The notes under the pieces: generated by a model | Database searches by the model: none | Told to the model about the DNA's origin: nothing | Seen by the model: the letters and a program-made list of their open reading frames with translations, nothing else | Assembly: GCA_964544275.1 (NCBI GenBank) | Contig: CAZIZX010000005.1 | Span: forward strand, 4,720-68,719 | Source of the DNA: an uncultured Gammaproteobacteria bacterium | GTDB taxonomy: Bacteria > Patescibacteriota > Microgenomatia > UBA12405 | Reading direction: 5' to 3' | DNA: 64,000 bases | Position numbers and translations under genes: made by a program | Part shown: one piece after another, positions 36,273 to 63,537 of the stretch | Numbering within the stretch: position 1 is the stretch's first letter | How the letters are laid out: every line of letters begins with the position of its first letter

Positions 36273-36680
36273 ATGAATGGGAGTTTTATGAAAAGGTACT
36301 TTTTGATAATAGTGTTGACCTTTGTAGCTACTGGAATGGTGGTGACTAGACTTAAATACCAAGAAGATGGTTTTGAAAGAGAAGTTATTGAGACTAAAAA
36401 CTTAAATACAGAAATTGAGAGTGAACCAGACTTGATAATTACTCCGACTGAGGCGGTTGAGTCGGAAGACGAAGTGTTTGAACTTGACCCCGATTATCCT
36501 TTATGGAGATCTTTGCCTTATTACGGTAAAGGTTATATTGTAGATAGATATGTTGAAAGTTTAAAATTGGTAGTAAAAATTAAAGGTATTGATAAAGAAA
36601 TAGTGGAAGAGGACGTTTATGAATGGATTAAAGAAAATGGAGTTGATCCAGAGAGTCACACAATCGAATGGGAGGATTAA
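36273..36680 (+). CDS. Small secreted/membrane-anchored protein, paralog B
   Basis: Same conserved C-terminal motif as paralog A. Its stop overlaps the dnaN stop on the opposite strand. Confidence 0.5.
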   Translation: MNGSFMKRYFLIIVLTFVATGMVVTRLKYQEDGFEREVIETKNLNTEIESEPDLIITPTEAVESEDEVFELDPDYPLWRSLPYYGKGYIVDRYVESLKLVVKIKGIDKEIVEEDVYEWIKENGVDPESHTIEWED

Positions 36681-37795
36681 TCCTGAAGACGGACCGGCAT
36701 GATGATATGGGTAAATTGAGGGTCGGACTGATCACGGAAGAGAGCTGGGGAAAGAGATTCATTCAGTTCAATGACAAGTTCATCACCTTTGCAGACAGAA
36801 AGGAAGTCGGAAACAAATTTGTAGTTGAAAGCAATGTCTAAATTACCACCTTCAACCTTAGCTTCGACAGTGGTTTTGTTTTGACCAATTTGAGGGGCAT
36901 TGGCTGAAACTTCAACGTGAGAACCGGAAACGCCAAAGCGAATGATATTGGCAGACTCGCGAGCAAAAACGGAGGCAATTCTGACAGCTTGAGATAATTC
37001 TTCTTTGTTTAAGGTGAGTCTGGTATTAAAGGAGGAAGGTATTATTCGCTGATAATCAGGAAACTCACCTTCCACCAGACGAGAGGCAAGCTCTAGGCCG
37101 TCTAGGACGAAAATTAATTGATGTTCGTCTACTGATAGACCTAAAGTAAGCTTTTTGTCGTTTCTGGAGAGTTTAGTGATTTCAGAGAGGCTTTTGCCGG
37201 GGATCAAAAGGGTGAGATTGTCGGAGGGTAGAGAAATTGGATTAACTAATTTTATTTCTTTGAGAGAAAGTCGAAAGCCATCAGTAGCAGCTAAAGTCAG
37301 CTGATTGCTGGTAAAACGACAAAGAACAGCGGTTAAGACAGGGCGAGTATCATCGGTGGCGGCAGAAAAAACGATTTGACTGACTGACTCCCGAAGTATT
37401 GACATATCCAGATCGATGGACTGGTTAGCATCAAGAGAAGGGGTTAGTGGAAAATCACCGGGAGGAGTAATGGTAAAAGTGGATTGAGCTTTGGGAGAAG
37501 AGACAGTTAACAGATTACTGGTGTTAACTTCGAGATCAAGACGGCCGGGTGGTAGGTAAGAGACAAACTCGGTAATTTCTTTGGCCGGAATAGTCAAACT
37601 TCCCTCAGAATCAATCTTGGCACCAATCCAACAGCTGATACCTAATTCCAAGTTGGTAGCCGATAATTTTAGTTGGCCGTTGTTGGTAGAAAGAAAAATA
37701 TTACTCAAAATTGGAAGTTGGGATCGGGTTGAAACAAAGCGAGAAACATTACTTAAAGCAGTGGAAAAGTTTTCCTGTAGAAGGGAGAGTTTCAT
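36677..37795 (-). CDS. dnaN: DNA polymerase III beta sliding clamp
   Basis: MKLSLLQENFSTALSNVSRFVS..., 372 aa, three-domain clamp pattern. Confidence 0.9.
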   Translation of the reverse strand: MKLSLLQENFSTALSNVSRFVSTRSQLPILSNIFLSTNNGQLKLSATNLELGISCWIGAKIDSEGSLTIPAKEITEFVSYLPPGRLDLEVNTSNLLTVSSPKAQSTFTITPPGDFPLTPSLDANQSIDLDMSILRESVSQIVFSAATDDTRPVLTAVLCRFTSNQLTLAATDGFRLSLKEIKLVNPISLPSDNLTLLIPGKSLSEITKLSRNDKKLTLGLSVDEHQLIFVLDGLELASRLVEGEFPDYQRIIPSSFNTRLTLNKEELSQAVRIASVFARESANIIRFGVSGSHVEVSANAPQIGQNKTTVEAKVEGGNLDIAFNYKFVSDFLSVCKGDELVIELNESLSPALFRDQSDPQFTHIIMPVRLQD

Positions 37796-38117
37796 TGTCT
37801 TATATTAACAAAAAGAAGGTGTTCAGTAAATAATAAAACCGGGTTAGTTAAATATGATAAATAATAAATAACTAGTAGCAGTAGTATTAGGTGGAGTGTA
37901 TAAGTGCAGAGATGGAAACAATTTCCTAAAATATCGAGGTAGATGTAAAAATTAGGGTGTGGATTAGATTGATTTAAAGTTGGTTTTCCATAAAAAACGG
38001 AGAAAGTGGCTTATAAGCTTGCTTGTTGTTTGGGTAAGGTTCGGGGGAAAAAGAGAAAATTAATTGTGGACAAGTCGGTGGATAAATAAAGGAAATTTGT
38101 GGATAAAAATTTTTCTT
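37796..38117. promoter_or_regulatory. Candidate oriC: AT-rich dnaN-dnaA spacer with DnaA-box cluster
   Basis: TGTGGATAA (38098-38106, perfect reverse complement of TTATCCACA), GGTGGATAA (38077-38085), TGTGGACAA (38065-38073), TGTGGATTA (37958-37966); 322 bp with AT-rich stretches. Confidence 0.5.
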
Positions 38118-39464
38118 TTAAAATTTAGACTTGATTTGGTTAATAAGTGTACGGGTTTGTGGGTTTGTGGAAAAGGAGGTATGGATTTTGTCTCGGGCGT
38201 GCATAATACTGGTGTGATCACGTCCACCCAAAAGTTGACCAACTTCATCGAGAGCCAGATTGATGTGGGTGAGAAGTAAATAGGCGGTGATATGGCGGGC
38301 AAAGACAAGATCTTTTTTTCGACTTTTACCACAAAGCTCACCGGTTTTTAGATTAAAATGTTTGGCACAAATTGAGATGAGGTGGCGAGGGTTGGTATTA
38401 AGGGAAGAAGTGGAGGTTGAAGAGGTAGATGAGGGGTTAAAGAGGTTTTGGATAAACTGAAGATCAATCTCCCCCACCCTTTGGGTTTGAGATTGAACAG
38501 AAATTTCTTGCAACTTACCTTCGATGTCTCTAATATTGGAGTCTAAATTTTCGGCCAAAAAAGAGACGGCGTCTGGAGTGATGTTAATTCCCTTGTCTTG
38601 AGCCTTCTGGTTAATAATGGCGGTTCTCATTTCAAAGTCAGGCAGTTGAATGTCAACAGTTAATCCGCCCATAAAACGGGAGACAAGTCGGTCTTCGAGA
38701 TCTTTGATTTCGCTGGGTTTGCGGTCGGAAGTAAGAATTACCTGTTTGCCGGACATGTGGAGGGCATTAAAGGTGTGAAAAAATTCTTCCTGAATGTACT
38801 CTTTGCCGGCAATGAATTGAATATCATCAACTAAGATACAGTCGAGGTGGCGGTATTTTTCTTTGAACTGGTTAATATTTTTGGAACGGAGGGCGAAGAT
38901 GAGTTCATTACCAAAGGTTTCGGCGGGGAAATAACGAACTTTAAACGAGGGGTTGTTTTTGAGTAATTCATGGCCAATGGCTTGCATGAGATGGGTTTTA
39001 CCGACCCCTACTCCGCCCCAGATGAAGAAGGGGTTGTAGGTGGCGCCGGGATTTTTGACAATACCCTGGGCGGCAGCGAAGGCAAAATTATTACTATTGC
39101 CGACAATTAAATTATCGAAGGTGTATTTGGGGTGAAGGTTGGCTGATGGAGCTGGAGTGAGTAGAGGTTGGTTATAAGAAAAGAGAGGGGCGGGAGTGGT
39201 GTTATTGTCAGTTTTTATCGGTTCCTGGACAATAAAGGCGAGGGAGTTGTCGGTTTTGGTTTGGTTGTCGAGAGCACTTTTGAAAAGATCGTAGTAGCGT
39301 TTTTTATTGATATCAACCAGGTAGGAATTGGAACAAGAAATAGTAGCAGTACTGTTTTTGTAGGCAATTAACTGAGTGTTGGCAACAAAAGTTTGGAAGA
39401 CAGCAGGAGCCAGGACGACTTTTAATTCTTCCTGAGTATTTTTCCAAATACGATCAATGTCCAT
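38118..39464 (-). CDS. dnaA: Chromosomal replication initiator protein DnaA
   Basis: AAA+ Walker A GGVGVGKTHLMQAIGHE, C-terminal DnaA-box-binding domain. Start placed at MDIDRIWKNTQEELK (39464) rather than the ORF-track start 39551. Confidence 0.9.
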   Translation of the reverse strand: MDIDRIWKNTQEELKVVLAPAVFQTFVANTQLIAYKNSTATISCSNSYLVDINKKRYYDLFKSALDNQTKTDNSLAFIVQEPIKTDNNTTPAPLFSYNQPLLTPAPSANLHPKYTFDNLIVGNSNNFAFAAAQGIVKNPGATYNPFFIWGGVGVGKTHLMQAIGHELLKNNPSFKVRYFPAETFGNELIFALRSKNINQFKEKYRHLDCILVDDIQFIAGKEYIQEEFFHTFNALHMSGKQVILTSDRKPSEIKDLEDRLVSRFMGGLTVDIQLPDFEMRTAIINQKAQDKGINITPDAVSFLAENLDSNIRDIEGKLQEISVQSQTQRVGEIDLQFIQNLFNPSSTSSTSTSSLNTNPRHLISICAKHFNLKTGELCGKSRKKDLVFARHITAYLLLTHINLALDEVGQLLGGRDHTSIMHARDKIHTSFSTNPQTRTLINQIKSKF

Positions 39465-39519
39465 AATATTGGTTGTAAGACAGGCAGATTTGAGGCTGTC
39501 AGAGGCAGGAAAAATTAAC

Positions 39520-39528
39520 TTATCCACA
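39520..39528. promoter_or_regulatory. Consensus DnaA box TTATCCACA upstream of dnaA (a second box TGTGGATAT lies at 39608-39616 upstream of rpmH)
   Basis: Exact 9-mer match in the divergent dnaA/rpmH promoter region. Confidence 0.5.
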
Positions 39529-39631
39529 TTGATGATATAAGAGTTTTCCACAAAAGAAAAGATATCAAAGAAGAGTTGGTTTGGAAATTTGCAAATATAA
39601 TCTAAGGTGTGGATATGTTAAAATAACCGCT

Positions 39632-51353: not shown

Positions 51354-53603
51354 ATGACAGAAAGAAGCGGGGCGATACCCAGTTCCTATTTGAGCGAAGT
51401 GAGAAGGGGAGGAATGGGAGAAGCGGATACGCGATGGGTAGAGGGAACGGCTTCTTTGGTTAAAGACCATATTTTTTATCCAGATCGAAGTAGAGTAGGA
51501 GGGGTGGGCGATACGGCGAAATCATTGGTGGAAGCTGTGAGCCAGGGGTTACCGAAGAGGTATCAGCGGGTGGCCGAGTTAAACAGGGATTACAACATGG
51601 CCCAAAGTCAGGGTGATAATGATTTGGCGGAACAATTGGATAGAAGATTAAATTTGTTGACACAGGTATCACTTGAAGCAATTACCAGTGGGAGTCCAAG
51701 GCCGGGAGCGAATACGCCTGATTATGCGGCGATAGCCGGGGCAGGGAGTACTTTGGATGTTAACCGGGCTTTGCCGCGGGAGTTGGTGGGTTTGGGTGAA
51801 AGGATAAGAAATCACTTGATAAGTAATCAGGAGGTGCAGGGTGTACTGAATTCACTGGATCGGGTGAGGCAAGATAAAGGTTGGGACAGAAGACCTCCGC
51901 GGGCAGAGAAAGTGCTGGAGGAGTATGAGAGTCATTATGAAAGATTGGCGGCTTTGAGGAGAACTATTGGTGAAAATCATCAAGACAGAGGGCAGTTGGA
52001 TATGGCAATGGCATATTTGGAAGATAAAATGCAGCAGGAAGAGATGAGGATCGGGGCGGGAGGACAACAGCAAGGACGTGACAGTGTGGAGGGTGGACGA
52101 CAAATGCCAAGTGAGGTTTCTACTGACATTGAAATTCCGACCAGTCCAGAGTCTCAGTTAAGATATGTGAGGACAATATTGGATACTTTAGAAGCAACCA
52201 ATAGGGATACCGGGGATTATGCCATAGCTACCAGAGTACATTACTTGGAATCAATTGCAGACAGGTTAAGTCCTGAGGTTGCGAGAGAAGTAAAAGCAAG
52301 AATTGCATTGGTAGATTGCTACGCCTTAATGAGAAAAGCAAACGGTTGGATTGAGCAACCACCTTCCGGGGGGATGACTATGGGTGGGGCAGCGCAGATT
52401 GCTTATGAGAGAAATCATGATTTATCAAGGGAAGTAATGGAGTTTTTCTTTGCTAGAGACAGCCGAAGCATGGTGGCTAACGGATTGCCAATTGATAGAG
52501 CATGGGATTTATTGCAGGAAGCTAACTTTAAATATGAAGAGATGATTGATAAGGTTGCAGCACATTTTGGTAGAGATCCTAATCGTATGAAAAGGGATTT
52601 TACCGTAAGTTTTGATGATGATCCTTCTTTAGGTAGGGTGGAAACAAATTTTTATGTTGACGGCAATGATGAGAGGAAAAATTTAGTTAGAGAGTATATA
52701 GTGGAGAGATTGGGTGGGGGATACCAAGCTAGAAAGGCATTGCAGCTAGCAGAAAGACTTATTTATGCAACGGCAGAAGCATCGGTAATTAACAGAGGAT
52801 CCCAGACGGGCAATGATCAGTTAGCAGAGGCAATCGGTTTGCATGCTTATCGCAGGAGTAGAGCACATACTGGAAGAAACAGAGGGCCGGAGCTTCATAT
52901 CGACGAAATACCTGGTTTTGGCATATCTTGGATTAGACAGTTTTCTCGGGTTACAAACGTAAATTCTCCTTTGTTTTCGAAAGACATTTTACCAGGTAGA
53001 ATCGAAGAAGGAAATTATCTGTATTATTATAGTGTTTGGGTCTCTGCAAAAATTCATCCATTGAGGGAAGAGGTATTGAATATTGCGCCTGATCCTAAGA
53101 AAATGTTATCTAGAGGTTTTTTTCAGAGGGCTGTTGATTATTTTAATAAAGCGGACCCTCCCTATGATGTAGTACGTGTTCCTGATAGGAATGTGTTGCC
53201 GCATGAAGTGCTTTTGGATAACAATGGAGATAAATATATAAAATATAAGGGAAGAAGAGTTGTCGGTGTAAAGCGAGGGGATGAACTGGTTTTTGATTTT
53301 GGTGGAGGAGTGAGAGTGGTAGCGGAGAAGACAAAGGAAGGAAAGAAGAGATTGCGATCATGGTATATTGCAGGAGTTGTTCAAATGGCCTCAACTGAAG
53401 GTTCTTTGGGTTGGACATTGGATGATGTTCAAGATTTGGGGAATCTTGTTAGCAGGGAAAGGTATGCTGAATTATCGGAAGAAGCAGGTACGTTTATTTC
53501 AAGAGAATCTTGGAATTGGATAATGAAGATTAATGACGCTCCAAGTGAAATGAGGAAAATGGAAGCTAGAAGACGAAGTAGAAGGAGGGCAGGTAGAGGA
53601 TAA
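51354..53603 (+). CDS. Large hypothetical soluble protein with Arg-rich C-terminal tail
   Basis: 749 aa, no TM, no Walker motifs, ends RKMEARRRSRRRAGRG. True start may be an internal Met. Confidence 0.4.
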   Translation: MTERSGAIPSSYLSEVRRGGMGEADTRWVEGTASLVKDHIFYPDRSRVGGVGDTAKSLVEAVSQGLPKRYQRVAELNRDYNMAQSQGDNDLAEQLDRRLNLLTQVSLEAITSGSPRPGANTPDYAAIAGAGSTLDVNRALPRELVGLGERIRNHLISNQEVQGVLNSLDRVRQDKGWDRRPPRAEKVLEEYESHYERLAALRRTIGENHQDRGQLDMAMAYLEDKMQQEEMRIGAGGQQQGRDSVEGGRQMPSEVSTDIEIPTSPESQLRYVRTILDTLEATNRDTGDYAIATRVHYLESIADRLSPEVAREVKARIALVDCYALMRKANGWIEQPPSGGMTMGGAAQIAYERNHDLSREVMEFFFARDSRSMVANGLPIDRAWDLLQEANFKYEEMIDKVAAHFGRDPNRMKRDFTVSFDDDPSLGRVETNFYVDGNDERKNLVREYIVERLGGGYQARKALQLAERLIYATAEASVINRGSQTGNDQLAEAIGLHAYRRSRAHTGRNRGPELHIDEIPGFGISWIRQFSRVTNVNSPLFSKDILPGRIEEGNYLYYYSVWVSAKIHPLREEVLNIAPDPKKMLSRGFFQRAVDYFNKADPPYDVVRVPDRNVLPHEVLLDNNGDKYIKYKGRRVVGVKRGDELVFDFGGGVRVVAEKTKEGKKRLRSWYIAGVVQMASTEGSLGWTLDDVQDLGNLVSRERYAELSEEAGTFISRESWNWIMKINDAPSEMRKMEARRRSRRRAGRG

Positions 53604-53728: not shown

Positions 53729-55345
53729 TTATGAGCCTGAGGTGGATTGAGATGGGGGTTCTCTAGTGGTACTATTCCGAGAAGCTTGGTCTTCTGCGGT
53801 GGTTTGTTGGGTTCTCCTTTTGGCAAACCAATTCGTTGCTTGAGAAATTCGTTCTTCGGCTTGCTTCCCAACTTCTTCTTGAGCATATCTTTCAAGTCCG
53901 CCTCGGATGTTCTTGGTGATAGGTGCAATAATTGGCATATTACCAAGTCCTTCTCCGACAGCACTACCCCAAGGAGACGGTTTGAGTTGGAAGATGGCTT
54001 GAGGGATAAGCTCTGGGAGTTTGGAAACCATAAGTAGTCCTCCCATGCCGATAAAAAAGGGAACGAGGCCTGCACCTGCGGATAAAATTTGAGGGGTCCA
54101 AATTGTAGCTCCAGAATACTTTATTGATTCGACGATGACATTTAGTATGATCAGGAAAATTAAGGATATAGGAAAGACGGAAAGATTGGCAACTAAATCG
54201 ATAATCCAGGAGGAAAAGCCCATTTTGGAGTTGGGAAAAGCTCCAAGACCAATTTCGAGAGGGGCTAAAATAATTTTGACAATAGCTGCGACATAGCATT
54301 TTATGAGTCCGAAAAAAAATTTGAAAAGAAAAAAGACGATGATAATTGAGAATATCAGGGTAACTATTCCGGCTCCAATAGCTGCACCTTTCAATCCGAC
54401 GAGAACAGTACCAATACCCGGTAGGGCAGATCCTGTGATAGCGCCGACAACTCCTCCGATGACAGCACCAATCAGAGCGAGATATTCAACGCCTGAATTT
54501 CTGATCATAAGGTAGAAGGAGGATACAAGATCAAAATTGTTAAGAGACCTATAGTTACTGGAAGCGATACCAATGTTTTGGAGGGCACCGGAAAATAAAT
54601 TTTCGTTCAAATTTGTGATCCCGCGGGCTTGAAAGATGGCAGCAATAGCTATAGCTTGGATCAGGTTTAGCAAGTCAATAACCAGACCGGCAATGGCGTA
54701 AGAGAAGGTGACTAGAATGAGGGTCATGAAAAGGCGAGGAAGAGCATTTTGTATGGTAATTGTGGCTTGAGGGCTAATCTTGATGCGAAGAATGATCATG
54801 AAACCAATGGCGATGAGTATTAAGGAAGAAAAGATGTAAACAATATTACGGAAGGTTCGCCAAATATCAAGTAGTGGTTGGAGGCCAACAAAACCAACAC
54901 CTTGTTGGGCATAGGCGGGTTTACCGAGAAAACTATTTTTCATTTGAGCTATATATTCGACCCCGGAAGCCGGAGGACTAAAGGTGGCAGCAATCAGATT
55001 GTTGACAGAACCGACAACGCCACCTGGTATCCAAACAATAGGTTGGCCGTTTTGGTCATACACTTGGCCTTCGAGAAACTCATCGGGAGCGGTTTCAAAT
55101 TCAATCAGGGCGTTGAGAGTGCCCATGACATTAGATTTAATTGCTTCTTTACCTAGCCAGGTTTCCATATTGGTACCTTTTGACCAAGCTTCTTTGGTAT
55201 CAAGAAAAATGTTGTTTTCTTGGGCAGAGACTGAGGATGTAAATATCGAGGAAAAAGCAAGAGCAAAAAGCAGAAAGACCAGAAATCCGGTATTTGAAAA
55301 AATTCTTGTAAGCAGGCGGTCTTTGACCATATGAAATTTTATCAT
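53729..55345 (-). CDS. VirB6/TrbL-like polytopic membrane protein with ~170-aa N-terminal extracytoplasmic domain
   Basis: Signal peptide then soluble domain, then at least 8 TM helices. Last gene of the pilin/transglycosylase operon. Confidence 0.45.
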   Translation of the reverse strand: MIKFHMVKDRLLTRIFSNTGFLVFLLFALAFSSIFTSSVSAQENNIFLDTKEAWSKGTNMETWLGKEAIKSNVMGTLNALIEFETAPDEFLEGQVYDQNGQPIVWIPGGVVGSVNNLIAATFSPPASGVEYIAQMKNSFLGKPAYAQQGVGFVGLQPLLDIWRTFRNIVYIFSSLILIAIGFMIILRIKISPQATITIQNALPRLFMTLILVTFSYAIAGLVIDLLNLIQAIAIAAIFQARGITNLNENLFSGALQNIGIASSNYRSLNNFDLVSSFYLMIRNSGVEYLALIGAVIGGVVGAITGSALPGIGTVLVGLKGAAIGAGIVTLIFSIIIVFFLFKFFFGLIKCYVAAIVKIILAPLEIGLGAFPNSKMGFSSWIIDLVANLSVFPISLIFLIILNVIVESIKYSGATIWTPQILSAGAGLVPFFIGMGGLLMVSKLPELIPQAIFQLKPSPWGSAVGEGLGNMPIIAPITKNIRGGLERYAQEEVGKQAEERISQATNWFAKRRTQQTTAEDQASRNSTTREPPSQSTSGS

Positions 55346-55366
55346 AGAGATGGTTGCTTGGCTAAG

Positions 55367-57940
55367 TTAATTGTTGTGACAGGCAGTAGGATTACTGGCT
55401 TGAATGCCAAGGACTGTTTTGTAATAGGTAGGATGATAGGCAGGACCGTAACGGTAGACTCCAAGTTCGATACTGCCCCAGCGGCTTATGAGTCCGGCCA
55501 AAAGAGAAGTGCCGTATTTGATGTTGAATTCGGGATGGAGAAGTTGGGCGGTGGTGGGGCGATCGGTAAAAAAGTGATCGAATTGATTGGTTTTGGTGTT
55601 ATCTTTGGGCATGATCTGCATCAATCCGACAGCTCCCTGAAAAGATATGGCATCAGGTTTGCCGCCGCTTTCGACGGTAATTAGAGCGGCAATGAGAGCA
55701 GGGTCAAGATTGTTTTCGAGAGAATATTTTCGAATCAAAGGGCACCATTGTTGGACGTTTTCGGCTACAGTGCCGGGAATGAATTCATAATCGCCGGGAA
55801 GATCCGGTCGTTGGAAGGAATCAATTGTACCAAGTTTTTCATGCCAGGATTCGGGATAGAGATAGGAGGTAAAGGCGTCGCGAAGTTTTTCGTTGCGGTT
55901 GCCTAAGTGGACAGTATCGTTTTTGTTGGTGGTGGATGAAAAAGGTTGATCTTTTATGTACTTGCCAGTATCTTCGGGGATAAAATATGAAAGAGCGGTG
56001 TCGTCTTTCTGGACGCCTTGGGCATACTGGGTGTCAAAGTATATTCTTTTGGTTAGATCAGCCCTTTCAGAGCGACTGAAGACGAGTCCTGTCCGGACTT
56101 CTTCGACAAAGATGTCCCAAATTTTGTCAACATTTTTAACTATTTTGCCGAATTGTAAAGGATTGGGTCGGTCACGGGCTGAATCCTGAGCAAGGGTGTT
56201 ACAGATATTTGACTCTAGAAGTTCTTGGGTGTCGGGCAGGAGGTTGTTGACGGCATTATTGTTGGGATAGACAGCAGCTAGAGGAATGGCTTGTTTTTGA
56301 GTGCTGTTGGGGTTGTCGGTGTTGTCATTTAGGATAATGTGCTTGGTGTCATATGAGCCGGTATCAACAATTTTTAGGGCTTCGAAGATTTTTTGGTAAC
56401 AATTATCATCTAATTGGGTGAATGTCTGGTTTTTCTTTGAAGTATAGGTTGAGCTGTATTGAGAGATAAAGCCCTGCTGAAAAGCGTGGATTTCACTTAA
56501 GAAGACAGGTCGACAAGTTAGGCCTTCAGGTTTCTGACAGTTGACACTAAAACATTGGGAGCCACAGCCCCAGGCAACTTGTTCGTCAATGGTGGTTCCG
56601 TGGTACTTGTTTTCTTCCGTTAAGGAACGGTAGGCTTCGGAAAGACGCTGTTCCTTTATTTTAATTTGGCTTTGGTAGGAGGTGCTTTTGAGAGCGGCAC
56701 CAACTCCGTCGGAATCATAGGATTTGAAAGAGGTATTTTTTACTTCTGAAGGGGCATTTATTTCAACGGGAAACTCTTTGGTCCAGTGGATTTGGGCTTT
56801 GCGGGTGGAATGATTGGTTAGATATTCGGAAGATAATACTTCCTGCTCAACCCGGTTGATAAATCTTTTGATAGTTTGGCCAATATCGGAAAGTAGGGGG
56901 ATGTAAGTGAAAGTTTCTTCGATGGAGATAGTTTTCTCGCAATAGGTATTGTCACTGATGTCAATATTGTTAGGAATGTTGTCCGGGTGTTTATTTTCGA
57001 TATTTTGGGCATTAGAGATGGGGGGGGAGAGATTGTTGGTGGTGACAATGACGGGAGGAAAGTCATGAATGGTGGATAAGTTACAGACAGCAGATTCACA
57101 AGTGACATTGGTGCAATCGTTTTTAAGGGCTCGAGCAACCTGGTGGTTGCTAAATTTCCAGGAGCCGCCATCGGGTTCGACGGTAAACATGAAATAGGCA
57201 ATAATGTTGCTGTCTTGTTGCCAGGTTTGAGTAATTTTTTGGTCACAAAAAAATTGAATAAATTTACAATCATCGTAAACCGGAGTTCCGGAATCACCGT
57301 TAGCAAGAACGCCAACCTCGGTGAGGATAAACTTTTTGCCGGGAAAAAGGGAAGAATATTGCCGAGCTTTGGCTGGGCCATAGGCGTGATAAGAAATAAT
57401 ATCAAAGTTGCCAAAGGCAGCTTGAGTGGCAGGGAAATTGTGGTGGTGAGGGTCAAGACCGGGGGAGATAACGGTAAAGTTTTTGTCGGGACAGGATTGG
57501 AGGTAGTTAATAAAGTTTTGAGCCCGATCAATAGCCTCATTGAGGGAAAGATTTAACCTTTCCCGTTCATGTTCGAGTTCATTGAAGGGTTCGACGTAAA
57601 CGGTTTTGCCGGTAGAAAATGACTTGATGGAATTGCACCAGCGAGTGGCAATTTCCTGTTGTTGGGCAGGAGTGCCTAACATTTTGGGGGCAACAGCATT
57701 TTCCCAGTGGGAGTGAAGACGTAAAACGACGTTGGATGCTGAGATGTTAGAAATATTTTCAGGAGAAGGCGGAGCATAAAAAAGCCAATTTTTGAGGCTG
57801 GGGTCGGTGACGATATTAATATTTCCAGGTTGGTTGATAAGATTAATACCAGGTGAGGCTGAAAAAACAGGGGAAATAGCAGAGAAAAGGTAAAACAAGG
57901 TGGTGAAGAATAAAATAGGTCTGAAACAATGTTGAACCAC
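55367..57940 (-). CDS. Large secreted protein with C-terminal lytic transglycosylase (SLT) domain, VirB1-like
   Basis: Signal peptide; C-terminal ALIAALITVESGGKPDAISFQGAVGLMQIMP is the SLT ES...GLMQ signature. Confidence 0.65.
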   Translation of the reverse strand: MVQHCFRPILFFTTLFYLFSAISPVFSASPGINLINQPGNINIVTDPSLKNWLFYAPPSPENISNISASNVVLRLHSHWENAVAPKMLGTPAQQQEIATRWCNSIKSFSTGKTVYVEPFNELEHERERLNLSLNEAIDRAQNFINYLQSCPDKNFTVISPGLDPHHHNFPATQAAFGNFDIISYHAYGPAKARQYSSLFPGKKFILTEVGVLANGDSGTPVYDDCKFIQFFCDQKITQTWQQDSNIIAYFMFTVEPDGGSWKFSNHQVARALKNDCTNVTCESAVCNLSTIHDFPPVIVTTNNLSPPISNAQNIENKHPDNIPNNIDISDNTYCEKTISIEETFTYIPLLSDIGQTIKRFINRVEQEVLSSEYLTNHSTRKAQIHWTKEFPVEINAPSEVKNTSFKSYDSDGVGAALKSTSYQSQIKIKEQRLSEAYRSLTEENKYHGTTIDEQVAWGCGSQCFSVNCQKPEGLTCRPVFLSEIHAFQQGFISQYSSTYTSKKNQTFTQLDDNCYQKIFEALKIVDTGSYDTKHIILNDNTDNPNSTQKQAIPLAAVYPNNNAVNNLLPDTQELLESNICNTLAQDSARDRPNPLQFGKIVKNVDKIWDIFVEEVRTGLVFSRSERADLTKRIYFDTQYAQGVQKDDTALSYFIPEDTGKYIKDQPFSSTTNKNDTVHLGNRNEKLRDAFTSYLYPESWHEKLGTIDSFQRPDLPGDYEFIPGTVAENVQQWCPLIRKYSLENNLDPALIAALITVESGGKPDAISFQGAVGLMQIMPKDNTKTNQFDHFFTDRPTTAQLLHPEFNIKYGTSLLAGLISRWGSIELGVYRYGPAYHPTYYKTVLGIQASNPTACHNN

Positions 57941-57978
57941 AAATTATTATAGCAAGACGCAAGCAAGGGAATGGTATT

Positions 57979-58365
57979 TTAGCCGGGGATTCTGAACTGA
58001 AGTATGGATAAATCCAGCCCGGTGAAATTGGCGATAAGTCTGAGGATGAGCCAGGAAATGATAATACCAGCCACGCCAAGTATGGCCATGGTAAGGCTGG
58101 ATGAGACTTGGGCGGTTTTTTTTGGGTCGCCGCTGGAAGTAAGATATTGGAAGCCATTAGTTATCAGAACCACAAAAAAAACTAGGCCAACCAGAAAGAC
58201 GATAGCTTGAAGAATATTAAAGAATAAACATTCAAGTCCTTGGATGGTAGCGACACCATCAACAACACAACGATTATCGATTTGGTTCCAGTCTTGTTGA
58301 GCAAAAGCAGCAGGAGGATTAAATAGGGTAATAAAAAATGGCAGTGCCAAGGCCTTCTTGAGCAT
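57979..58365 (-). CDS. VirB2/TrbC-like pilin paralog 1
   Basis: Start set at internal ATG (MLKKALALPFF...); leader ending AAFAQQ; hydrophobic-TSSGDPKK-hydrophobic core. Confidence 0.55.
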   Translation of the reverse strand: MLKKALALPFFITLFNPPAAFAQQDWNQIDNRCVVDGVATIQGLECLFFNILQAIVFLVGLVFFVVLITNGFQYLTSSGDPKKTAQVSSSLTMAILGVAGIIISWLILRLIANFTGLDLSILQFRIPG

Positions 58366-58391
58366 AAATGGATTATACAATAATTTAAAGC

Positions 58392-58416
58392 AAAACCCCG
58401 ACTTTAGTCGGGGTTT
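58392..58416 (-). terminator. Intrinsic-terminator-like hairpin between pilin paralogs 2 and 1
   Basis: Minus-strand transcript reads AACCCCGAC-UAAAG-UCGGGGUU followed by UUUUGC: 9-bp GC-rich stem plus U tract, 22 nt after the paralog 2 stop. Confidence 0.45.
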
Positions 58417-58438
58417 AAGGTTTACGATAGAAGTGAAA

Positions 58439-58819
58439 TTATGGTTGAAGGGTTGGTATTTCGAGAGTGAGGATGTTGATGCCGAAGATGACATTGATAA
58501 GCTGGACGATGGCCCAAGCGGCAAAAATAATAGCCAGACCGATAAGAGCACTGGTAATTTGGGCGCGGGCCGAAGCGACTTTCTTTTCGTCACCTTCGGA
58601 AGTAACCCACTTAATGCCGCCCCAGATAAGCATGAAGAAAAAGAGCAGGGCAGCGACCAGCATGATCAAGCTGATCAGTCCGGAAACTAAGCTGGCGGGG
58701 GTGATATTTCGAAGGACATTAAAGGTGCTGCTATCTTTGGGTCTGAGATCTATTTGCTGGGCGTAGGCGGGAGCGACCAGAGAGAAATATTTGACTTTAT
58801 TTGTTATTTGTTTGATCAT
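58439..58819 (-). CDS. VirB2/TrbC-like pilin paralog 2
   Basis: PAYAQQ leader end; core WVTSEGDEKKVASARAQITSALIGLAIIF. Confidence 0.55.
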   Translation of the reverse strand: MIKQITNKVKYFSLVAPAYAQQIDLRPKDSSTFNVLRNITPASLVSGLISLIMLVAALLFFFMLIWGGIKWVTSEGDEKKVASARAQITSALIGLAIIFAAWAIVQLINVIFGINILTLEIPTLQP

Positions 58820-58899
58820 TTTGTTGATTTAATGGTTAATTTGTAAGTAATTAGTTTATTTTAGCAGTTAGTTTTTTAAAATGGAAGGATTGCTTGTTT

Positions 58900-59259
58900 T
58901 TAGAGAGTGGGCCAGGGAATTGACAGGGCTTCCAGGCCTTGGATACCAGTAATTGTACCGATTAATTTGAGGATGACAAAAATAGAAAAGATTAAGATTA
59001 AGCCGACAAAAGCATAAGTGATAGAAGTGCGTCCGGATTCTATCTTTTTGGGATCACCCTCAGAGGTAATGAAGTGGAAAGCTCCAAGTGAAAAGAAGAT
59101 GATAAACATGAGGACGGCAATTATGAAGAGTATGGAAAAACCAGTCTGGAGCAGGTTGTTGAAATATCCTTGTGGATTAGTTACTTGGTTAGCAGCGCTG
59201 CAGTTTGGATTGAGGGCGGGGTTACAGATTTGGGCGAGAGCGGGTTTGACGATTGACAT
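58900..59259 (-). CDS. VirB2/TrbC-like pilin paralog 3
   Basis: PALAQ near the N-terminus; core FITSEGDPKKIESGRTSITYAFVGLILIF. Confidence 0.55.
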   Translation of the reverse strand: MSIVKPALAQICNPALNPNCSAANQVTNPQGYFNNLLQTGFSILFIIAVLMFIIFFSLGAFHFITSEGDPKKIESGRTSITYAFVGLILIFSIFVILKLIGTITGIQGLEALSIPWPTL

Positions 59260-59260
59260 G

Positions 59261-59602
59261 TTATTTAAATAGAGGTGAACTGGTAAGATTGAGGATGCCG
59301 GGCATACCTAAGATAGTAGCAATAAGCGAGGCCAGGGCGACGGCGACGACAACGATAATGAGCCCCATGATGCCGTAAGTGAGAGATTTTCTGGCGGAAT
59401 CGACTTTGGCCTTGTCGCCTTCGGAAGAAATAAAATTATAGCCGGCAATAATGATTTGAAAGATAAAGTAGATGACGGCAGCTACAGTGAGTAAGCCAAT
59501 AACCGTGCTGATTAGGTTTTGGAGAGTGGTGACAGAGTCAGCACCGGGCTGGAGGCCAAAGGGATTTTTCAATGTTTGAGCGTAAGCTGGTTTGATAATC
59601 AT
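59261..59602 (-). CDS. VirB2/TrbC-like pilin paralog 4
   Basis: PAYAQ near the N-terminus; core FISSEGDKAKVDSARKSLTYGIMGLIIVV. Confidence 0.55.
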   Translation of the reverse strand: MIIKPAYAQTLKNPFGLQPGADSVTTLQNLISTVIGLLTVAAVIYFIFQIIIAGYNFISSEGDKAKVDSARKSLTYGIMGLIIVVVAVALASLIATILGMPGILNLTSSPLFK

Positions 59603-59922
59603 TATTGTGGTCCCAAAATTCTGGGATTAAGGATGTCAATATTTAATATGCGGCCAACGACGGAAGCGATAAGGAAAGCAGAAGCGATAATTCCGAGACC
59701 GATAATGCTTTGGATGAGTCGGGAGGTAGCCTGTTCAACTTTTTTGGGGTCGCCGCTGGCTGAAAGAAGAGAGAAGCCGGACATGATAATCTGGAAAACA
59801 AAAAAGATAGCAGCGACAGTGGTAATGAGAATAAAAAAACGGTTGAGTAGGGTAAAAAGAGGAGAATCGCCGGTTGTTTCTATTTGGACCGGTGGTTTGA
59901 TTTGGCCGATAATGTCGCCCAT
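59602..59922 (-). CDS. VirB2/TrbC-like pilin paralog 5
   Basis: Core LLSASGDPKKVEQATSRLIQSIIGLGIIA. Confidence 0.55.
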   Translation of the reverse strand: MGDIIGQIKPPVQIETTGDSPLFTLLNRFFILITTVAAIFFVFQIIMSGFSLLSASGDPKKVEQATSRLIQSIIGLGIIASAFLIASVVGRILNIDILNPRILGPQ

Positions 59923-59925
59923 GGT

Positions 59926-60246
59926 TTAGTTGGTATTATTGAAAATTGTAACTCCGGTGACCATTTCGATAACTTGAACGATAAAAAAGGCAGAAACAAC
60001 GATCACTAGCCCGATAACGGCATTGGTAACAGCTTGTTTGCCGGTTTCAGTCTTTTTGGCATCATTACTGCCTGCGCCAATTATAAGCTGAAGACCGCCA
60101 AAAATCAAAAGACCAAGGAAAATTATGCCAGCCAGAGAAATAATATTTTTTAAGAGAACATTGACAAGAACGCCAAGATTAGGGAAGGTGTTTTCAAGAG
60201 TACGGCCGGAACCTAGAGGTAATTGCCCAATATTAACTTGAATCAT
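59926..60246 (-). CDS. VirB2/TrbC-like pilin paralog 6 (first gene of operon)
   Basis: Start set at internal ATG (MIQVNIGQLPLGS); core LIIGAGSNDAKKTETGKQAVTNAVIGLVIVV. Confidence 0.5.
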   Translation of the reverse strand: MIQVNIGQLPLGSGRTLENTFPNLGVLVNVLLKNIISLAGIIFLGLLIFGGLQLIIGAGSNDAKKTETGKQAVTNAVIGLVIVVSAFFIVQVIEMVTGVTIFNNTN

Positions 60247-60398
60247 TTTAATGGAAATTATACTATGTATATATAGGAATTTGTAGGAGCGCTTGGTAGA
60301 AAATTGACAAATAGATTTATTTGGCTGAAGATTCCGTATATATGATGATATAATACGCCACAAAGAAAAGGTTAATAATTAATATAAATCCCAAAAGA

Positions 60399-61310
60399 AT
60401 GAGAAAAAATATAATTATTACAATATGGGTGATGGCGGGAATGGTCTGGCTGTCGGGTTTGGGCAGTAAGGTGTTGGCGGTGACTGAGGTACCGGAGGCA
60501 AGTGTGAGCGCTGAGACGGAAGAAGCCAGTGTGAGCGCGACCCCAATTCCAACTGAGGTTAAACCAAAAGAGAACATAACCGAACCAAGTAGTCCGGAAG
60601 TTAAGTATCGATTAGAGTCGGTACTAGAGCGGCAGGAGGTTGATGGTTGGAATGGAATAAATAGCTTGAGAAAGGTGGTGAGAGTGGCTATCGACAGGGG
60701 TGTTTCGGCTAATACGATAGTTTTGCTGTTGTTATTGCCATTGGTGGCAACATTGGTATCGGTGCTACATTACGTGTTTGGCTTATCCGGTTACGGGATA
60801 TTTACGCCAACGATGTTGGCGGTGACGTTTCTGGCAACGGGAATTTTGGGAGGTTTGCTGTTATTTGCTTTGATTTTGGCGATATCATTGGTGGGCAATA
60901 TGATACTTAAAAAGTTAAGGTTGCACTTTTGGCCGTCGAGGTCGATTAATTTGGCATTTATTGCTTTTGGGACTTTTGGGTTGATGTTTGTGTCGTCTTT
61001 TATGCCGTTTGTAGACATCAGCAATATATCCATATTCCCAATATTGTTTATGATATTGCTGGCGGAAGAATTTGTGAGAACACAATTGGTCAAGAGCCGG
61101 GACGAGGCGATGAAATTGACTTTGGGGACGCTGGTGCTGGCGATTGGCGGAGCAGTAACCATGAGTTTCCGATGGGCGCAGGAGATGGTGTTGTTGAACC
61201 CAGAAATTACAATACTTCTGGTAATAGTGATTAACCTTTTGGTGGGGAGTTACACCGGAATCAGACTGTTGGAAATAAGTAGATTTAAAAAAGCGATTAG
61301 AGAAAAGTAA
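60399..61310 (+). CDS. Seven-TM membrane protein with ~100-aa N-terminal extracytoplasmic region (7TM partner of ATP-grasp amidoligase systems)
   Basis: Signal peptide, acidic/Pro-rich stretch, then 7 hydrophobic helices. Immediately upstream of two ATP-grasp genes. Confidence 0.5.
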   Translation: MRKNIIITIWVMAGMVWLSGLGSKVLAVTEVPEASVSAETEEASVSATPIPTEVKPKENITEPSSPEVKYRLESVLERQEVDGWNGINSLRKVVRVAIDRGVSANTIVLLLLLPLVATLVSVLHYVFGLSGYGIFTPTMLAVTFLATGILGGLLLFALILAISLVGNMILKKLRLHFWPSRSINLAFIAFGTFGLMFVSSFMPFVDISNISIFPILFMILLAEEFVRTQLVKSRDEAMKLTLGTLVLAIGGAVTMSFRWAQEMVLLNPEITILLVIVINLLVGSYTGIRLLEISRFKKAIREK

Positions 61311-61325
61311 ATTTTTGATAAATTT

Positions 61326-62648
61326 ATGATTAAATTAGGCGCTTATAAACAATTTCTGACCAAAAACGACAGGAATAAGGTGTATTTGCGGAAGAACGGA
61401 GTGAGTGGCAGGGCTATTGCCGACAGCAAGTATAAGACCAAAAGCAGGTTGGCCAGGGCGGGGGTGATGGTACCAAAATTGATTGCCAGATTTAGAGATG
61501 AGGAAGAGTTGAACAATTTCCGATGGGAGGATTTAGAGGGTAATTTTGTGATAAAACCGGTGTCGGGTTATGGAGGGGAAGGAATTATTATTATCCGAAG
61601 AAGGGGCAAATGGGCAGGTGAGTGGCAGAAGATGAACGGTGAGGTTATTAGCACGCAGGAGATTAATCTTCATTGTCGGGAAATATTGGCGGGACGTTAC
61701 AGTCTGCATGGGATACCGGATAACGTGCTGGTGGAAGAGAGAATCAAGATTCATCCAAAGTTTTTGTCTTTGACCAAATCGGGAACACCGGATATCAGAG
61801 TAATTGTGTACAATAAAATCCCGGTAATGGCGATGTTTAGGATACCAACAGAGAAGAGCGGAGGAAAGGCAAATTTGCAACAGGGAGCGATGGGGCTGGG
61901 GATTGACTTGGCGACGGGAATTACAACTTACGGAGTGGAAGGGAAGGGAGATTTGGTGACCAGGATTTATGACTACAAGAAGAAAAAAAGGATAAAGGTA
62001 AACGGGATAAAAATCCCCTGGTGGAAAGAAATATTGGAAACAGCGGTAAATTGTCAGAAGGCGATTCCGTCTTTGGGATTCTTGGGGGTGGATATTGTTC
62101 TGGATAAAGAAAAAGGGCCGGTGGTGCTGGAAGTGAATGCCAGACCGGGCCTGTCGATTCAAATCTGCAACAAGGCGGGCCTGAAAAACAGAATGGACAA
62201 GGTGGAAGGGTTGGAAGTGAGGAGTATTAACCACGCTACGACTTTGGCCAAATATTTGTTTGGGGAAAGTTTTTTTGAGAAGGTGGAGGAAAAGGAAAAA
62301 GACAAAATAAGGACAGTTAAGCCATTGGAAACGGTGAAGGTGAAAATCGGCAAAGGGAAGAAGAACGTAGTTGAAGTATTGGCTAAAATTGATACAGGAG
62401 CTTTTCGAAGTTCGATTGACAGGAGCTTGGCATTGAAGCATGGGTTGCTGGGTGAAGATAAGGTTTTATATTATCGGCACTACAGGAACAGTATGGGATC
62501 AGGAGTGAGGAGGCCGGTGGTGGAATTGACTTTTTGGTTGCAAGGTAAAAGAATTACGTCGGCCATTAATGTGGCGGATAGGAAGAAATTAAGAGCAAAA
62601 TTCTTGATTGGAAGGAGAGATTTACAGGATTTTGTGGTAAAAACTTGA
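61326..62648 (+). CDS. ATP-grasp ligase (alpha-L-glutamate-ligase-related / ATPgrasp_ST type) fused to C-terminal retropepsin-like aspartic peptidase domain
   Basis: FVIKPVSGYGGEGIIII, DIRVIVYNKIPVMAMFRIP and GVDIVLDKEKGPVVLEVNARPGLS form the ATP-grasp. The C-terminus carries VKIGKGKKNVVEVLAKIDTGAFRSSID (D-T-G-A), as in the Zn_protease/PF05618-type proteins found next to RimK. Confidence 0.6.
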   Translation: MIKLGAYKQFLTKNDRNKVYLRKNGVSGRAIADSKYKTKSRLARAGVMVPKLIARFRDEEELNNFRWEDLEGNFVIKPVSGYGGEGIIIIRRRGKWAGEWQKMNGEVISTQEINLHCREILAGRYSLHGIPDNVLVEERIKIHPKFLSLTKSGTPDIRVIVYNKIPVMAMFRIPTEKSGGKANLQQGAMGLGIDLATGITTYGVEGKGDLVTRIYDYKKKKRIKVNGIKIPWWKEILETAVNCQKAIPSLGFLGVDIVLDKEKGPVVLEVNARPGLSIQICNKAGLKNRMDKVEGLEVRSINHATTLAKYLFGESFFEKVEEKEKDKIRTVKPLETVKVKIGKGKKNVVEVLAKIDTGAFRSSIDRSLALKHGLLGEDKVLYYRHYRNSMGSGVRRPVVELTFWLQGKRITSAINVADRKKLRAKFLIGRRDLQDFVVKT

Positions 62649-62649
62649 T

Positions 62650-63537
62650 ATGAAAAAGATCGGAGTGTTTTTTGGCGGAAAGTTAAATTCAAAAGTAGAA
62701 GCACTTAAACTGGCGGCGGAGAGGCAGGGGGTGAGCTTAGATTTAATTAATTACAAACAGGTTGGCTATAGAGTTTCGGGGGATAGAGTGAAGATTGAGC
62801 TGGGGAAGGGAAGGAAGCTGGCTGACTATGGAGTGATATTTTTCCGGACAGCGAAAAATCATTGGGAAAAAATTGGAGTGATTGTTGACGCTATTGACGA
62901 CAAGACAGTAGTGGTGGACCCGATTGTAAAAACGGGAAGGCCAACAGATATCTGCAAGGTGTATCAAGTGAAAACTTTGGCGAAAAACGGGCTGTCAGTA
63001 CCCAAAACTGTAATGGGAGATTTGCATTGGCTTCGGTTAAGAGCGGACAAATTGTTTAAATATCCAATGATCCTGAAGGGAAGTCAGGGAGACAGGAGGT
63101 CGCAGGTGTTTAAATTTTATAGTAATGCCGATTGGGATAAGCGATGGGAAAATTGTGTTTTAAGGGTAAAAAATGAAGGACAGATATATATGTTGCAAGA
63201 ATACGTGGAAAATATTGAAGATTATCGAGTAATGGTAGTAGGGAAGAAGGTTTTGGGAGTGATGAAGAGGGCGGTTGGAGAAAATAGCCAACTTAAGAAT
63301 GTGTTTACGAAGACAGAGTTACCTGAAAAAGATTTAGAGTTGGCGGCGAGGGCGGCGAGGGCCTGTGGAATTGAAATAGCCGGGGTGGACATGGTTTATA
63401 GGAAGGAAAGCGAAACACCTATGTTCTGGGAAGTAAACAAAACGCCAAATTATTCCCGGTTTATGGAAGTAACCGGGATAGATGTGCCAGGGGAAATAGT
63501 TTCACATTTAGCGGCATATTTGAAAAAGAACAAATAG
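62650..63537 (+). CDS. rimK: RimK-family ATP-grasp alpha-L-glutamate ligase
   Basis: 295 aa; MILKGSQGDRRSQV, YMLQEYVENIEDYRVMVVGKKVLG, EIAGVDMVYRKESETPMFWEVN. Start is 2 nt after the previous stop. Confidence 0.7.
   Translation: MKKIGVFFGGKLNSKVEALKLAAERQGVSLDLINYKQVGYRVSGDRVKIELGKGRKLADYGVIFFRTAKNHWEKIGVIVDAIDDKTVVVDPIVKTGRPTDICKVYQVKTLAKNGLSVPKTVMGDLHWLRLRADKLFKYPMILKGSQGDRRSQVFKFYSNADWDKRWENCVLRVKNEGQIYMLQEYVENIEDYRVMVVGKKVLGVMKRAVGENSQLKNVFTKTELPEKDLELAARAARACGIEIAGVDMVYRKESETPMFWEVNKTPNYSRFMEVTGIDVPGEIVSHLAAYLKKNK

Follow-up and report, generated by a model that had tools for sequence, protein, structure and literature searches.

Why would a bacterium keep six different genes for what looks like one pilin: as interchangeable versions of a single subunit, or as dedicated parts of a single structure? 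This question is raised by a locus on the minus strand (positions 53729-60363) of a 64,000-nucleotide (nt) stretch of DNA, hereafter the window (contig CAZIZX010000005.1), from a Shapirobacteria-like (Microgenomates) chromosome. An initial annotation, made from the letters and translations alone, had read it as a single transcript encoding six VirB2-type pilins of a type IV secretion system (T4SS), which would form a heteropolymeric or antigenically variable filament, followed by VirB1-like and VirB6/TrbL-like proteins. Patescibacteria are a large, mostly uncultured share of bacterial diversity, and in the one species tested, the saccharibacterium Southlakia epibionticum ML1, the T4SS (SEML1_0006-0019), including its pilin series, is essential (Wang et al. 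2023, PMC10633639). A review highlights the six divergent VirB2-like pilins of S. epibionticum and a possible pilus in a monoderm (PMC12857230). Quinonero-Coronel et al. (2025) surveyed 441 VirB2 arrays of 2-11 genes (PF18895/PF04956), which lie near virB4 and dnaA and are commonest in Microgenomatia and Saccharimonadia, and reported that VirB6 homologues are scarce in Microgenomatia (PMC12102498). The kind of system is thus already published, and the locus described here is a further member from a Shapirobacteria-like genome. We find it quite probable that it is the surface-structure module of a Patescibacteria-type T4SS, derived from monoderm mating-pair formation (MPF)-FATA systems. The useful incremental findings are a fixed set of six pilins, a predicted transcription unit for pilin 5 and a VirB6-fold family in Microgenomates.

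Six consecutive genes encode predicted T4SS pilins of family PF18895

Open reading frame (ORF) translations, together with a reading of the sequence, place eight co-oriented genes on the minus strand of the locus, and the six pilin genes among them are consecutive (57979-60246). Protein lengths are in amino acids (aa), and bit scores refer to the Pfam family PF18895.

59926..60246, minus strand: pilin 1, 106 aa (32.5 bits; start taken from ortholog lengths)
59602..59922, minus strand: pilin 2, 106 aa (50.3 bits)
59261..59602, minus strand: pilin 3, 113 aa (29.3 bits)
58900..59259, minus strand: pilin 4, 119 aa (36.6 bits)
58439..58819, minus strand: pilin 5, 126 aa, candidate major pilin (42.7 bits)
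57979..58365, minus strand: pilin 6, 128 aa (34.8 bits)
55367..57940, minus strand: 857-aa secreted modular protein (SLT domain by Pfam)
53729..55345, minus strand: 538-aa polytopic membrane protein with a predicted VirB6 fold (AlphaFold model)

Spacings along the eight genes are 3, -1, 1, 80, 73, 38, and 21 nt, with pilin 2 beginning 3 nt past pilin 1 and pilin 3 overlapping the stop codon of pilin 2 by 1 nt. Two start codons differ from those of the longest ORFs. Pilin 1 starts at ATG 60246 and not at TTG 60363, from which the longest ORF over-extends, and pilin 6 starts at ATG 58365 and not at GTG 58593 (a 204-aa ORF); ortholog lengths agree with the ATG in both cases. The GTG of pilin 6 was rejected because it would make the gene overlap pilin 5 and its terminator.

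All six proteins pass the gathering threshold of PF18895 (T4SS_pilin), with scores of 29.3-50.3 bits against a cut-off of 26.6. For pilin 5, 114 of the 120 homologues listed carry a precomputed PF18895 annotation, and NCBI names homologues "pilin." As seen in an alignment of the six paralogs, each consists of two hydrophobic helices joined by a short turn, [ST]-[SA]-x-G-D-x-K-K, in which the G, D, and K residues are invariant, and helix 2 has an invariant Gly. The AlphaFold2 model of pilin 5 is a helical hairpin (residues 41-73 and 78-112) with a predicted local distance difference test (pLDDT) score >90. None of the six translations shows a G/FTLIE-type prepilin motif, and the proteins have two hydrophobic helices rather than one. 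Judged by these sequence features, the six proteins are VirB2-like, T4SS-type pilins of PF18895, and neither members of PF04956 nor type IV pilins. What the initial annotation had said of them, namely six small genes on one strand with a shared two-helix design, a VirB2-type identity and no type IV prepilin motif, is borne out by the translations, the alignment and the family threshold.

Like the canonical VirB2/TrbC/TraA pilins of Agrobacterium, RP4, and F (PF04956), these proteins are hairpins of two hydrophobic helices with a short basic turn predicted to be cytoplasmic, some of their leaders end at an Ala/Gln boundary, as in Agrobacterium VirB2, which is processed at Ala47/Gln48, and they are encoded together with VirB1-, VirB4-, and VirB6-type genes. 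In contrast to the canonical pilins, they fall short of the PF04956 threshold, have leaders of 0-22 aa instead of ∼36-51 aa, occur as six paralogs instead of one pilin, and belong to a monoderm envelope.

Matches outside Pfam bear on the origin of the family. All six pilins match the NCBIfam model NF045849, the "pilin-like conjugal transfer protein" (Mbov_0395 family) of Mycoplasma integrative and conjugative elements (ICEs), below threshold (E 6e-10 to 1e-5; 24.7-38.6 bits with a model cut-off of 40). This suggests that PF18895-type pilins may be native to monoderm MPF-FATA systems and not borrowed from diderm ones, a question that was left open in the array survey (PMC12102498). The Mycoplasma system is also a monoderm MPF-FATA system in which the pilin-like protein adjoins a larger membrane protein, but it is mobile, has a single copy and includes a relaxase, whereas the locus described here is chromosomal, has six copies and shows no relaxase. 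For pilins 3-5, there are also matches to the ICE transmembrane proteins NF045848 and NF045889, in their N-terminal part.

Related loci argue against a variable repertoire

Whether the six genes form a fixed set or a changing repertoire was assessed in 80 related loci from species-representative genomes and three loci from metagenome assemblies (L001-L083), in which pilins were called with a profile of the six window proteins. Exactly six pilins, on the same strand and in the same order upstream of a homologue of the 538-aa protein, are found in 55 loci, of ∼60 complete arrays; a few related loci have seven or eight. This recurrence in at least 55 species-level genomes puts the arrangement far beyond chance. 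When each pilin of the 55 loci was compared with those of other genomes, the best match was at the same array position for 329 of 330 proteins (55/55 in orthogroups 1, 2, 3, and 6, and 54/55 in orthogroup 4). Identity across species within one array position is 46-60%, against 31.5% between paralogs of one locus. Pilin 5 is the most conserved position, with 59.7% overall identity and 70.5% in the hairpin core (46-60% at the other positions), whereas N-terminal regions are the most variable (34-45% across species; 36% for pilin 5).

Each position also has its own conserved N- and C-terminal signatures. Pilins 1-4 lack a signal peptide. Pilin 1 has a conserved N-terminal "IG..PLG.G" and the turn AGSNDAKK, and pilin 2 a conserved C-terminal "ILNP.IYGP." Pilin 3 begins MIIKPAYAQ, and no longer leader is possible because an in-frame stop lies eight codons upstream. 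Pilin 4 begins MSIVKPALAQICNP..NC and ends with a C-terminal IPWPTL. The leaders of pilins 5 and 6 are 20-22 aa long and end A-x-A/Q, where the slash marks the predicted boundary: in pilin 5 a 20-aa signal-like leader ending APAYA/Q, and in pilin 6 a classical signal peptide ending PAAFA/Q, followed by two conserved Cys (RC...ATIQG.EC) and a C-terminal F.IPG.

These data bear on the idea that the six pilins are interchangeable alternative major subunits serving antigenic or host-range variation. In Bartonella and Anaplasma, variation of this sort has been proposed for VirB2 paralogs. Here, it would be in keeping with paralogs that are only ∼31% identical within a locus and with N-terminal regions, presumably exposed, that are the most variable part of the proteins, and it has been raised for Patescibacteria arrays (PMC12102498). 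However, copy number is six in 55 of the ∼60 complete arrays and gene order is fixed, every paralog has a 1:1 ortholog with position-specific signatures, a promoter-plus-terminator unit occurs at one position only (see below), and no recombination or switching elements were noticed. We regard the idea as very unlikely. The comparison instead argues against a variable repertoire and for six fixed, specialised and anciently separated orthogroups in a fixed gene order. The strict 1:1 orthology across 55 genomes thus contradicts one half of what the initial annotation had offered, antigenic variation, and the data favor the other, a heteropolymer. In Pfam family, tandem layout, nearness to virB4/dnaA/dnaN and intra-array identity (∼25-31%), the locus resembles the Patescibacteria arrays surveyed previously; those were read as variability possibly aiding host adaptation (PMC12102498), whereas here six orthologs make up a fixed set, in which member 5 has a distinct predicted transcription unit.

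Pilin 5 is likely the major pilin

The following transcription signals were predicted around pilin 5.

58858..58866, minus strand: TGcTAAAAT, promoter-like extended -10 box in the 80-nt gap between pilins 4 and 5, 38 nt ahead of the pilin 5 ATG
58392..58416, minus strand: intrinsic-terminator hairpin AACCCCGAC-TAAA-GTCGGGGTT with a TTGCTTT tail, beginning 23 nt past the pilin 5 stop
58372..58379, minus strand: TGTATAAT, resembling an extended -10 box, 6 nt ahead of the ATG of pilin 6

In 42 of 55 related loci, the gap between pilins 4 and 5 contains a TGn-extended -10 box, usually TGnTAAAAT and 21-43 nt before the ATG; the box is a consensus match only and not a mapped transcription start. A GC-rich hairpin with a T-tract 20-30 nt past the stop codon of the position-5 gene is found in 48/55 loci, against at most 4/55 at any other position. 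Stem sequences differ between loci and the stems covary; that the sequences differ points to selection on the hairpin structure. Gene spacing follows the same division, because the median gaps between pilins 1-4 are 2, -14, and 1 nt, and those flanking pilin 5 are 53 and 68 nt (55 loci). The initial annotation had deduced one transcript from short spacings and a shared direction, which the conserved promoter-like box before pilin 5 and the conserved terminator after it contradict; the array is probably not one plain transcript. Downstream, the TGTATAAT box could restart transcription after the terminator, possibly giving a leaderless mRNA. Conservation of this element is weak, with a TGn box within 130 nt past pilin 5 in 15/55 loci.

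As a monocistronic, terminator-flanked and highly constrained gene within the array, pilin 5 is likely to encode the major, self-polymerising subunit. The same evidence bears on the possibility that the six pilins assemble, in defined stoichiometry, into a short hetero-oligomeric stalk or a conduit across the wall, which would sit atop the VirB6-fold protein and form the channel core of a monoderm T4SS. Such a defined complex would fit the strict conservation of six distinct paralogs, pili are normally not found in monoderm MPF-FATA systems (PMC12102498, PMC12857230), Mycoplasma ICEs, for which no pilus is known, have a related "pilin-like" protein, and VirB6 of R388 forms a stalk with VirB5 (7o3v). 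On the other hand, the terminator-flanked unit and core conservation of pilin 5 point to a subunit in large excess, which favors a polymer over a complex of fixed ratio. We consider a stalk of this kind unlikely, and it differs from a filament built on pilin 5 only in the length of the structure.

Two further features were seen near the starts of these genes. TATAAT-type boxes lie 5-10 nt upstream of three starts, those of the 857-aa protein gene (57946-57954; GTG start), pilin 6 (58372-58379) and pilin 1 (60257-60262), which hints that the mRNAs have little or no leader. None of the six pilin genes is preceded by an evident Shine-Dalgarno-like sequence.

The 538-aa protein has a predicted VirB6-like fold

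The gene at the end of the array encodes a polytopic 538-aa protein with an N-terminal signal/anchor, a ∼100-aa ectodomain and a helical core (residues 150-450), in which the AlphaFold model shows ∼7 long helices. When the model was compared with 48,164 PDB chains, TrwI/VirB6 ranked first and DotA second; the model, polytopic and helical, can be superposed on a solved VirB6 structure. At the sequence level, the protein has no match in Pfam (TrbL PF04610 included), NCBIfam or the PDB.

The protein belongs to a large family. It has 616 word-indexed homologues, mostly labelled Candidatus Shapirobacteria, and a profile search of 1.84 billion representatives, in which the best 150 matches were listed (E <= 1e-80), found 3,537 cluster representatives; the family occurs in 529 species-level genomes. 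Pfam TrbL gives weak matches (best E 7e-4) in two of 42 more distant members, these being the lowest 42 among the best 150 of 3,537. In all 55 complete six-gene arrays, the homologue follows the pilins and shares their strand. We therefore accept the 538-aa protein as VirB6-like at the level of predicted fold and gene context, and not of Pfam membership. The VirB6/TrbL-like label given to it initially stands in that sense and fails at the PF04610 threshold. In common with the VirB6 family (TrwI of R388, 7o3v; DotA of Legionella, 9ngy; TrbL, PF04610), which provides its best structural matches, it is polytopic, helical and encoded beside pilin genes. It differs in having no significant sequence similarity, an extra ∼100-aa N-terminal ectodomain and a KPAYAQ motif. 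This unannotated VirB6-fold family, with its 3,537 cluster representatives, would fill the VirB6 gap reported in Microgenomatia.

The cell-wall enzyme appears to be an interchangeable accessory

Between pilin 6 and the VirB6-fold gene lies the gene for an 857-aa protein with a signal peptide, an N-terminal domain of ∼300 aa, a Cys-rich middle part of ∼400 aa and a C-terminal SLT domain.

55460..55738, minus strand: SLT lytic transglycosylase domain (PF01464), residues 735-827, with "TVESGG" and "GLMQ"

The match to PF01464 is clear (E 7e-18; 64.7 bits with a cut-off of 21.3), and in the PDB the domain resembles EmtA (1.8e-12) and MltC. NCBIfam models for EmtA, MltC, and a flagellar lytic transglycosylase also match, all below their cut-offs. 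For the first ∼720 residues, neither the N-terminal nor the middle domain has a Pfam or PDB match. As for conservation, the SLT domain is present in only nine of ∼80 fetched loci, whereas the gene slot itself is always filled, in relatives by proteins of 240-1093 aa; one locus (L003) has a separate SpoIID-domain protein. Therefore, the label "VirB1-like" used initially is right for the SLT domain with its catalytic Glu-Ser motif and does not extend to most of the related loci. The cell-wall enzyme is best read, from its distribution, as an interchangeable accessory and not as a conserved dedicated T4SS component.

The N-terminal domain has homologues in 11 related loci. Within residues 1-330, "EPFNELEH" and "ILTEVG" recall by eye the catalytic glutamates of clan GH-A glycoside hydrolases, a resemblance ("NE...TEVG") that finds no support in Pfam or the PDB.

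Small proteins with two transmembrane helices beside an SLT enzyme superficially resemble a holin-endolysin pair, and the 538-aa protein has a weak match to gp7 of phage P22 (E 0.032), so that the locus might be taken for a lysis or cell-wall remodelling cassette, perhaps a prophage remnant. All six pilins, however, score above the T4SS_pilin threshold, the membrane protein has a predicted VirB6 fold, and the pilins and the 538-aa protein are always there in orthologous loci, most of which lack the SLT domain. In addition, no phage genes were found nearby, and the locus is chromosomal, with uniform composition and with synteny conserved in at least 55 species, including FtsH, DUF6909, and ATP-grasp genes. 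We reject this explanation as highly improbable. A mobile-element origin of the locus was likewise ruled out by its uniform composition and its chromosomal synteny across species.

The locus and a distant VirB4 module probably belong to one T4SS

The initial annotation had pointed to VirB4 and PrgI-like components in another part of the window, and these are found at 28.9-33.0 kb, within the following module, whose parts are assigned by Pfam matches and whose arrangement is as in PMC12102498.

28939..35833, plus strand: predicted energising and inner-membrane module
28939-29847, plus strand: PrgI/VirB3-like protein (PrgI 25.9 bits; cut-off 27)
29880-30587, plus strand: TrsD-like protein, 235 aa (TraC_F_IV, E 0.011)
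30591-32999, plus strand: VirB4 ATPase (TraG P-loop domain, 1.2e-31; CagE_TrbE_VirB, 21.5 bits)
33023-35833, plus strand: 936-aa membrane protein directly after VirB4, without a Pfam or NCBIfam match
36677-39551: dnaN and dnaA, between the VirB4 module and the pilin array

Among ORFs of at least 150 aa in the 64-kb window, none was found to have a VirD4, VirB11, or relaxase domain. This agrees with the initial annotation, which had spoken of an apparent absence from the organism as a whole, a wider statement that does not follow. VirB5, VirB7, VirB9, and VirB10 were not found in the window either. The window is chromosomal and carries dnaN, dnaA, yidC, ftsH, and cell-envelope genes.

The 936-aa protein has a long coiled-coil N terminus, Gly/Ala-rich transmembrane segments and C-terminal Cys/His residues that look conserved ("FQCLGFS ... 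GDHIMYMGPHIMIL"). By eye, its C-terminal domain recalls amidases of the CHAP/NlpC type, which are the usual counterpart of VirB1 in monoderm T4SSs, and it has no Pfam or NCBIfam match.

In the mechanism that we propose for the surface-structure module, the pilins would be inserted in the membrane so that their two ends face outwards and the K/R-rich turn is cytoplasmic. Pilin 5, overproduced from its own promoter-to-terminator unit, would polymerise as the major subunit. Pilins 1-4, whose genes are tightly packed and probably translationally coupled, and pilin 6 would be low-abundance initiating, capping/tip or adaptor subunits. The VirB6-fold protein would act as the membrane platform for pilin extraction, powered by VirB4, and the SLT domain would make a local opening in the cell wall. 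By analogy with S. epibionticum, whose T4SS and pilin series are essential, the filament or conduit so formed may make contact with a host bacterium and serve in uptake or delivery.

Several findings weigh against this proposal. The pilin array is ∼21 kb from the VirB3/TrsD/VirB4 module, across dnaA-dnaN, and the ∼15-16 genes in between are unrelated. The threshold of PF04956 (TrbC/VirB2; 27.9 bits), the family by which the initial annotation had proposed to check the pilins, is reached by none of them, the only match being that of pilin 5 (16 bits; E 0.015), so that their T4SS-pilin identity stands through PF18895. Pilin profiles run against the PDB matched no VirB2, TraA, or TrbC chain, and a fold search with the pilin model returned no T4SS pilin among the top 50-60 hits; fold searches are uninformative here because any helical hairpin matches. 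A profile of the 538-aa family likewise found no VirB6 chain in the PDB by sequence. The SLT domain is rare among relatives, as described above, and the promoter and terminator around pilin 5 are sequence predictions. Finally, no filament has been seen, and no Patescibacteria T4SS is known to build an extracellular filament (PMC12857230).

One of the closest described systems is the T4SS of S. epibionticum. Both systems occur in monoderm Patescibacteria, have VirB3-, VirB4-, and VirB6-like parts, cell-wall hydrolases and six sequence-divergent VirB2-like pilins, and show no recognisable relaxase or coupling protein in the cluster. They differ in layout, because the pilins of S. epibionticum lie inside the T4SS cluster, whereas the pilin, hydrolase, and VirB6-fold genes described here lie apart from virB4; essentiality has been shown in S. 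epibionticum only. What the locus adds, for a second class (Microgenomates/Shapirobacteria), is an architecture that can be tested, with one pilin as the major subunit and five as minor ones, in place of the reading as a variable repertoire. Transcriptomics, mass spectrometry and structure modelling can be aimed directly at the predicted promoter and terminator of pilin 5 and at the KPAYAQ motif.

Pilins 3-6 and the VirB6-fold protein share a short motif

The initial annotation had described a leader often ending P-A-[YL]-A-Q, likened to a propilin processing site. This motif is limited to pilins 3-6, pilins 1 and 2 being without it. It is so close to the Met in pilins 3 and 4 (3-4 residues past it) that it cannot end a Sec signal peptide there. 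The motif recurs in the 538-aa protein.

54905..54922, minus strand: KPAYAQ motif of the VirB6-fold protein, residues 142-147, conserved in homologues

This KPAYAQ is identical to the N-terminal motif of pilin 3 and has close variants in pilins 4-6. Among 44 homologues of the 538-aa protein, K142, P143, Y145, and A146 are invariant or near-invariant, and the motif is also retained in the 42 more distant family members. The motif looks like a signal-peptidase site in pilins 5 and 6, but such a site cannot account for pilins 3 and 4 or for the internal copy in the VirB6-fold protein. The KP[AIV]YA[QA] motif of pilins 3-6 and the VirB6-fold protein may instead reflect a common maturation or docking step, e.g. 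cleavage before the Gln by a dedicated protease or cyclase. We know of no such step for any T4SS platform protein.

Whether more than this motif is common to the two kinds of protein was also considered. A profile of the six pilins aligned to residues 142-223 of the VirB6-fold protein (E 2e-4; probability 45%), as if the latter contained a pilin-like hairpin. With a profile of ∼325 pilins the match was gone (probability 0.2%), no better than controls such as 7TM_transglut and FtsH. The claim of hairpin homology was dropped because only the short KPAYAQ motif is common to the pilins and the VirB6-fold protein.

Taking the motif together with the array, we put forward only tentatively, and as somewhat doubtful in its entirety, a heteromeric appendage in which pilin 5 would be the major subunit and the other five dedicated minor subunits, conserved 1:1 since before the lineage diversified, with a maturation or docking step shared through KP[AIV]YA[QA]. 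If true, this would be a conjugative-type pilus of a monoderm whose subunits divide the labour much as those of type IV pili do.

Neighbouring genes and strand composition

Between the gene for the 936-aa protein and dnaN lie two genes for paralogous ∼134-aa proteins (35824-36228 and 36273-36680, plus strand), which have an N-terminal anchor, share "YPLW..LPY.G.GY" and match no family. Divergent from the array, positions 60399-63537 (plus strand) encode a 7TM_transglut protein, an ATPgrasp_ST domain fused to a Zn_protease-like C terminus, and a RimK-like ATP-grasp protein; the 7TM protein is present in 58 of ∼80 fetched loci. This peptide-ligase system may modify the pilins or may simply be syntenic with them. 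On the other side, and convergent with the VirB6-fold gene, positions 51354-53603 (plus strand) encode a 749-aa cytoplasmic-looking protein without a Pfam or NCBIfam match. Relatives have a 744-872-aa protein in the same slot (23 loci match at E < 1e-5), followed by DUF6909 and FtsH in conserved order.

Strand asymmetry in the window is extreme. Over positions 1-64000, the plus strand has 27.4% G and 13.8% C, and GC skew stays between +0.1 and +0.52 in all 2-kb bins, independent of gene orientation and without a sign change around dnaA/dnaN. In 42 of 47 related loci of at least 15 kb, the skew of the strand that carries the pilin array is -0.2 to -0.42. By this pattern, the array lies on the C-rich strand throughout the lineage.

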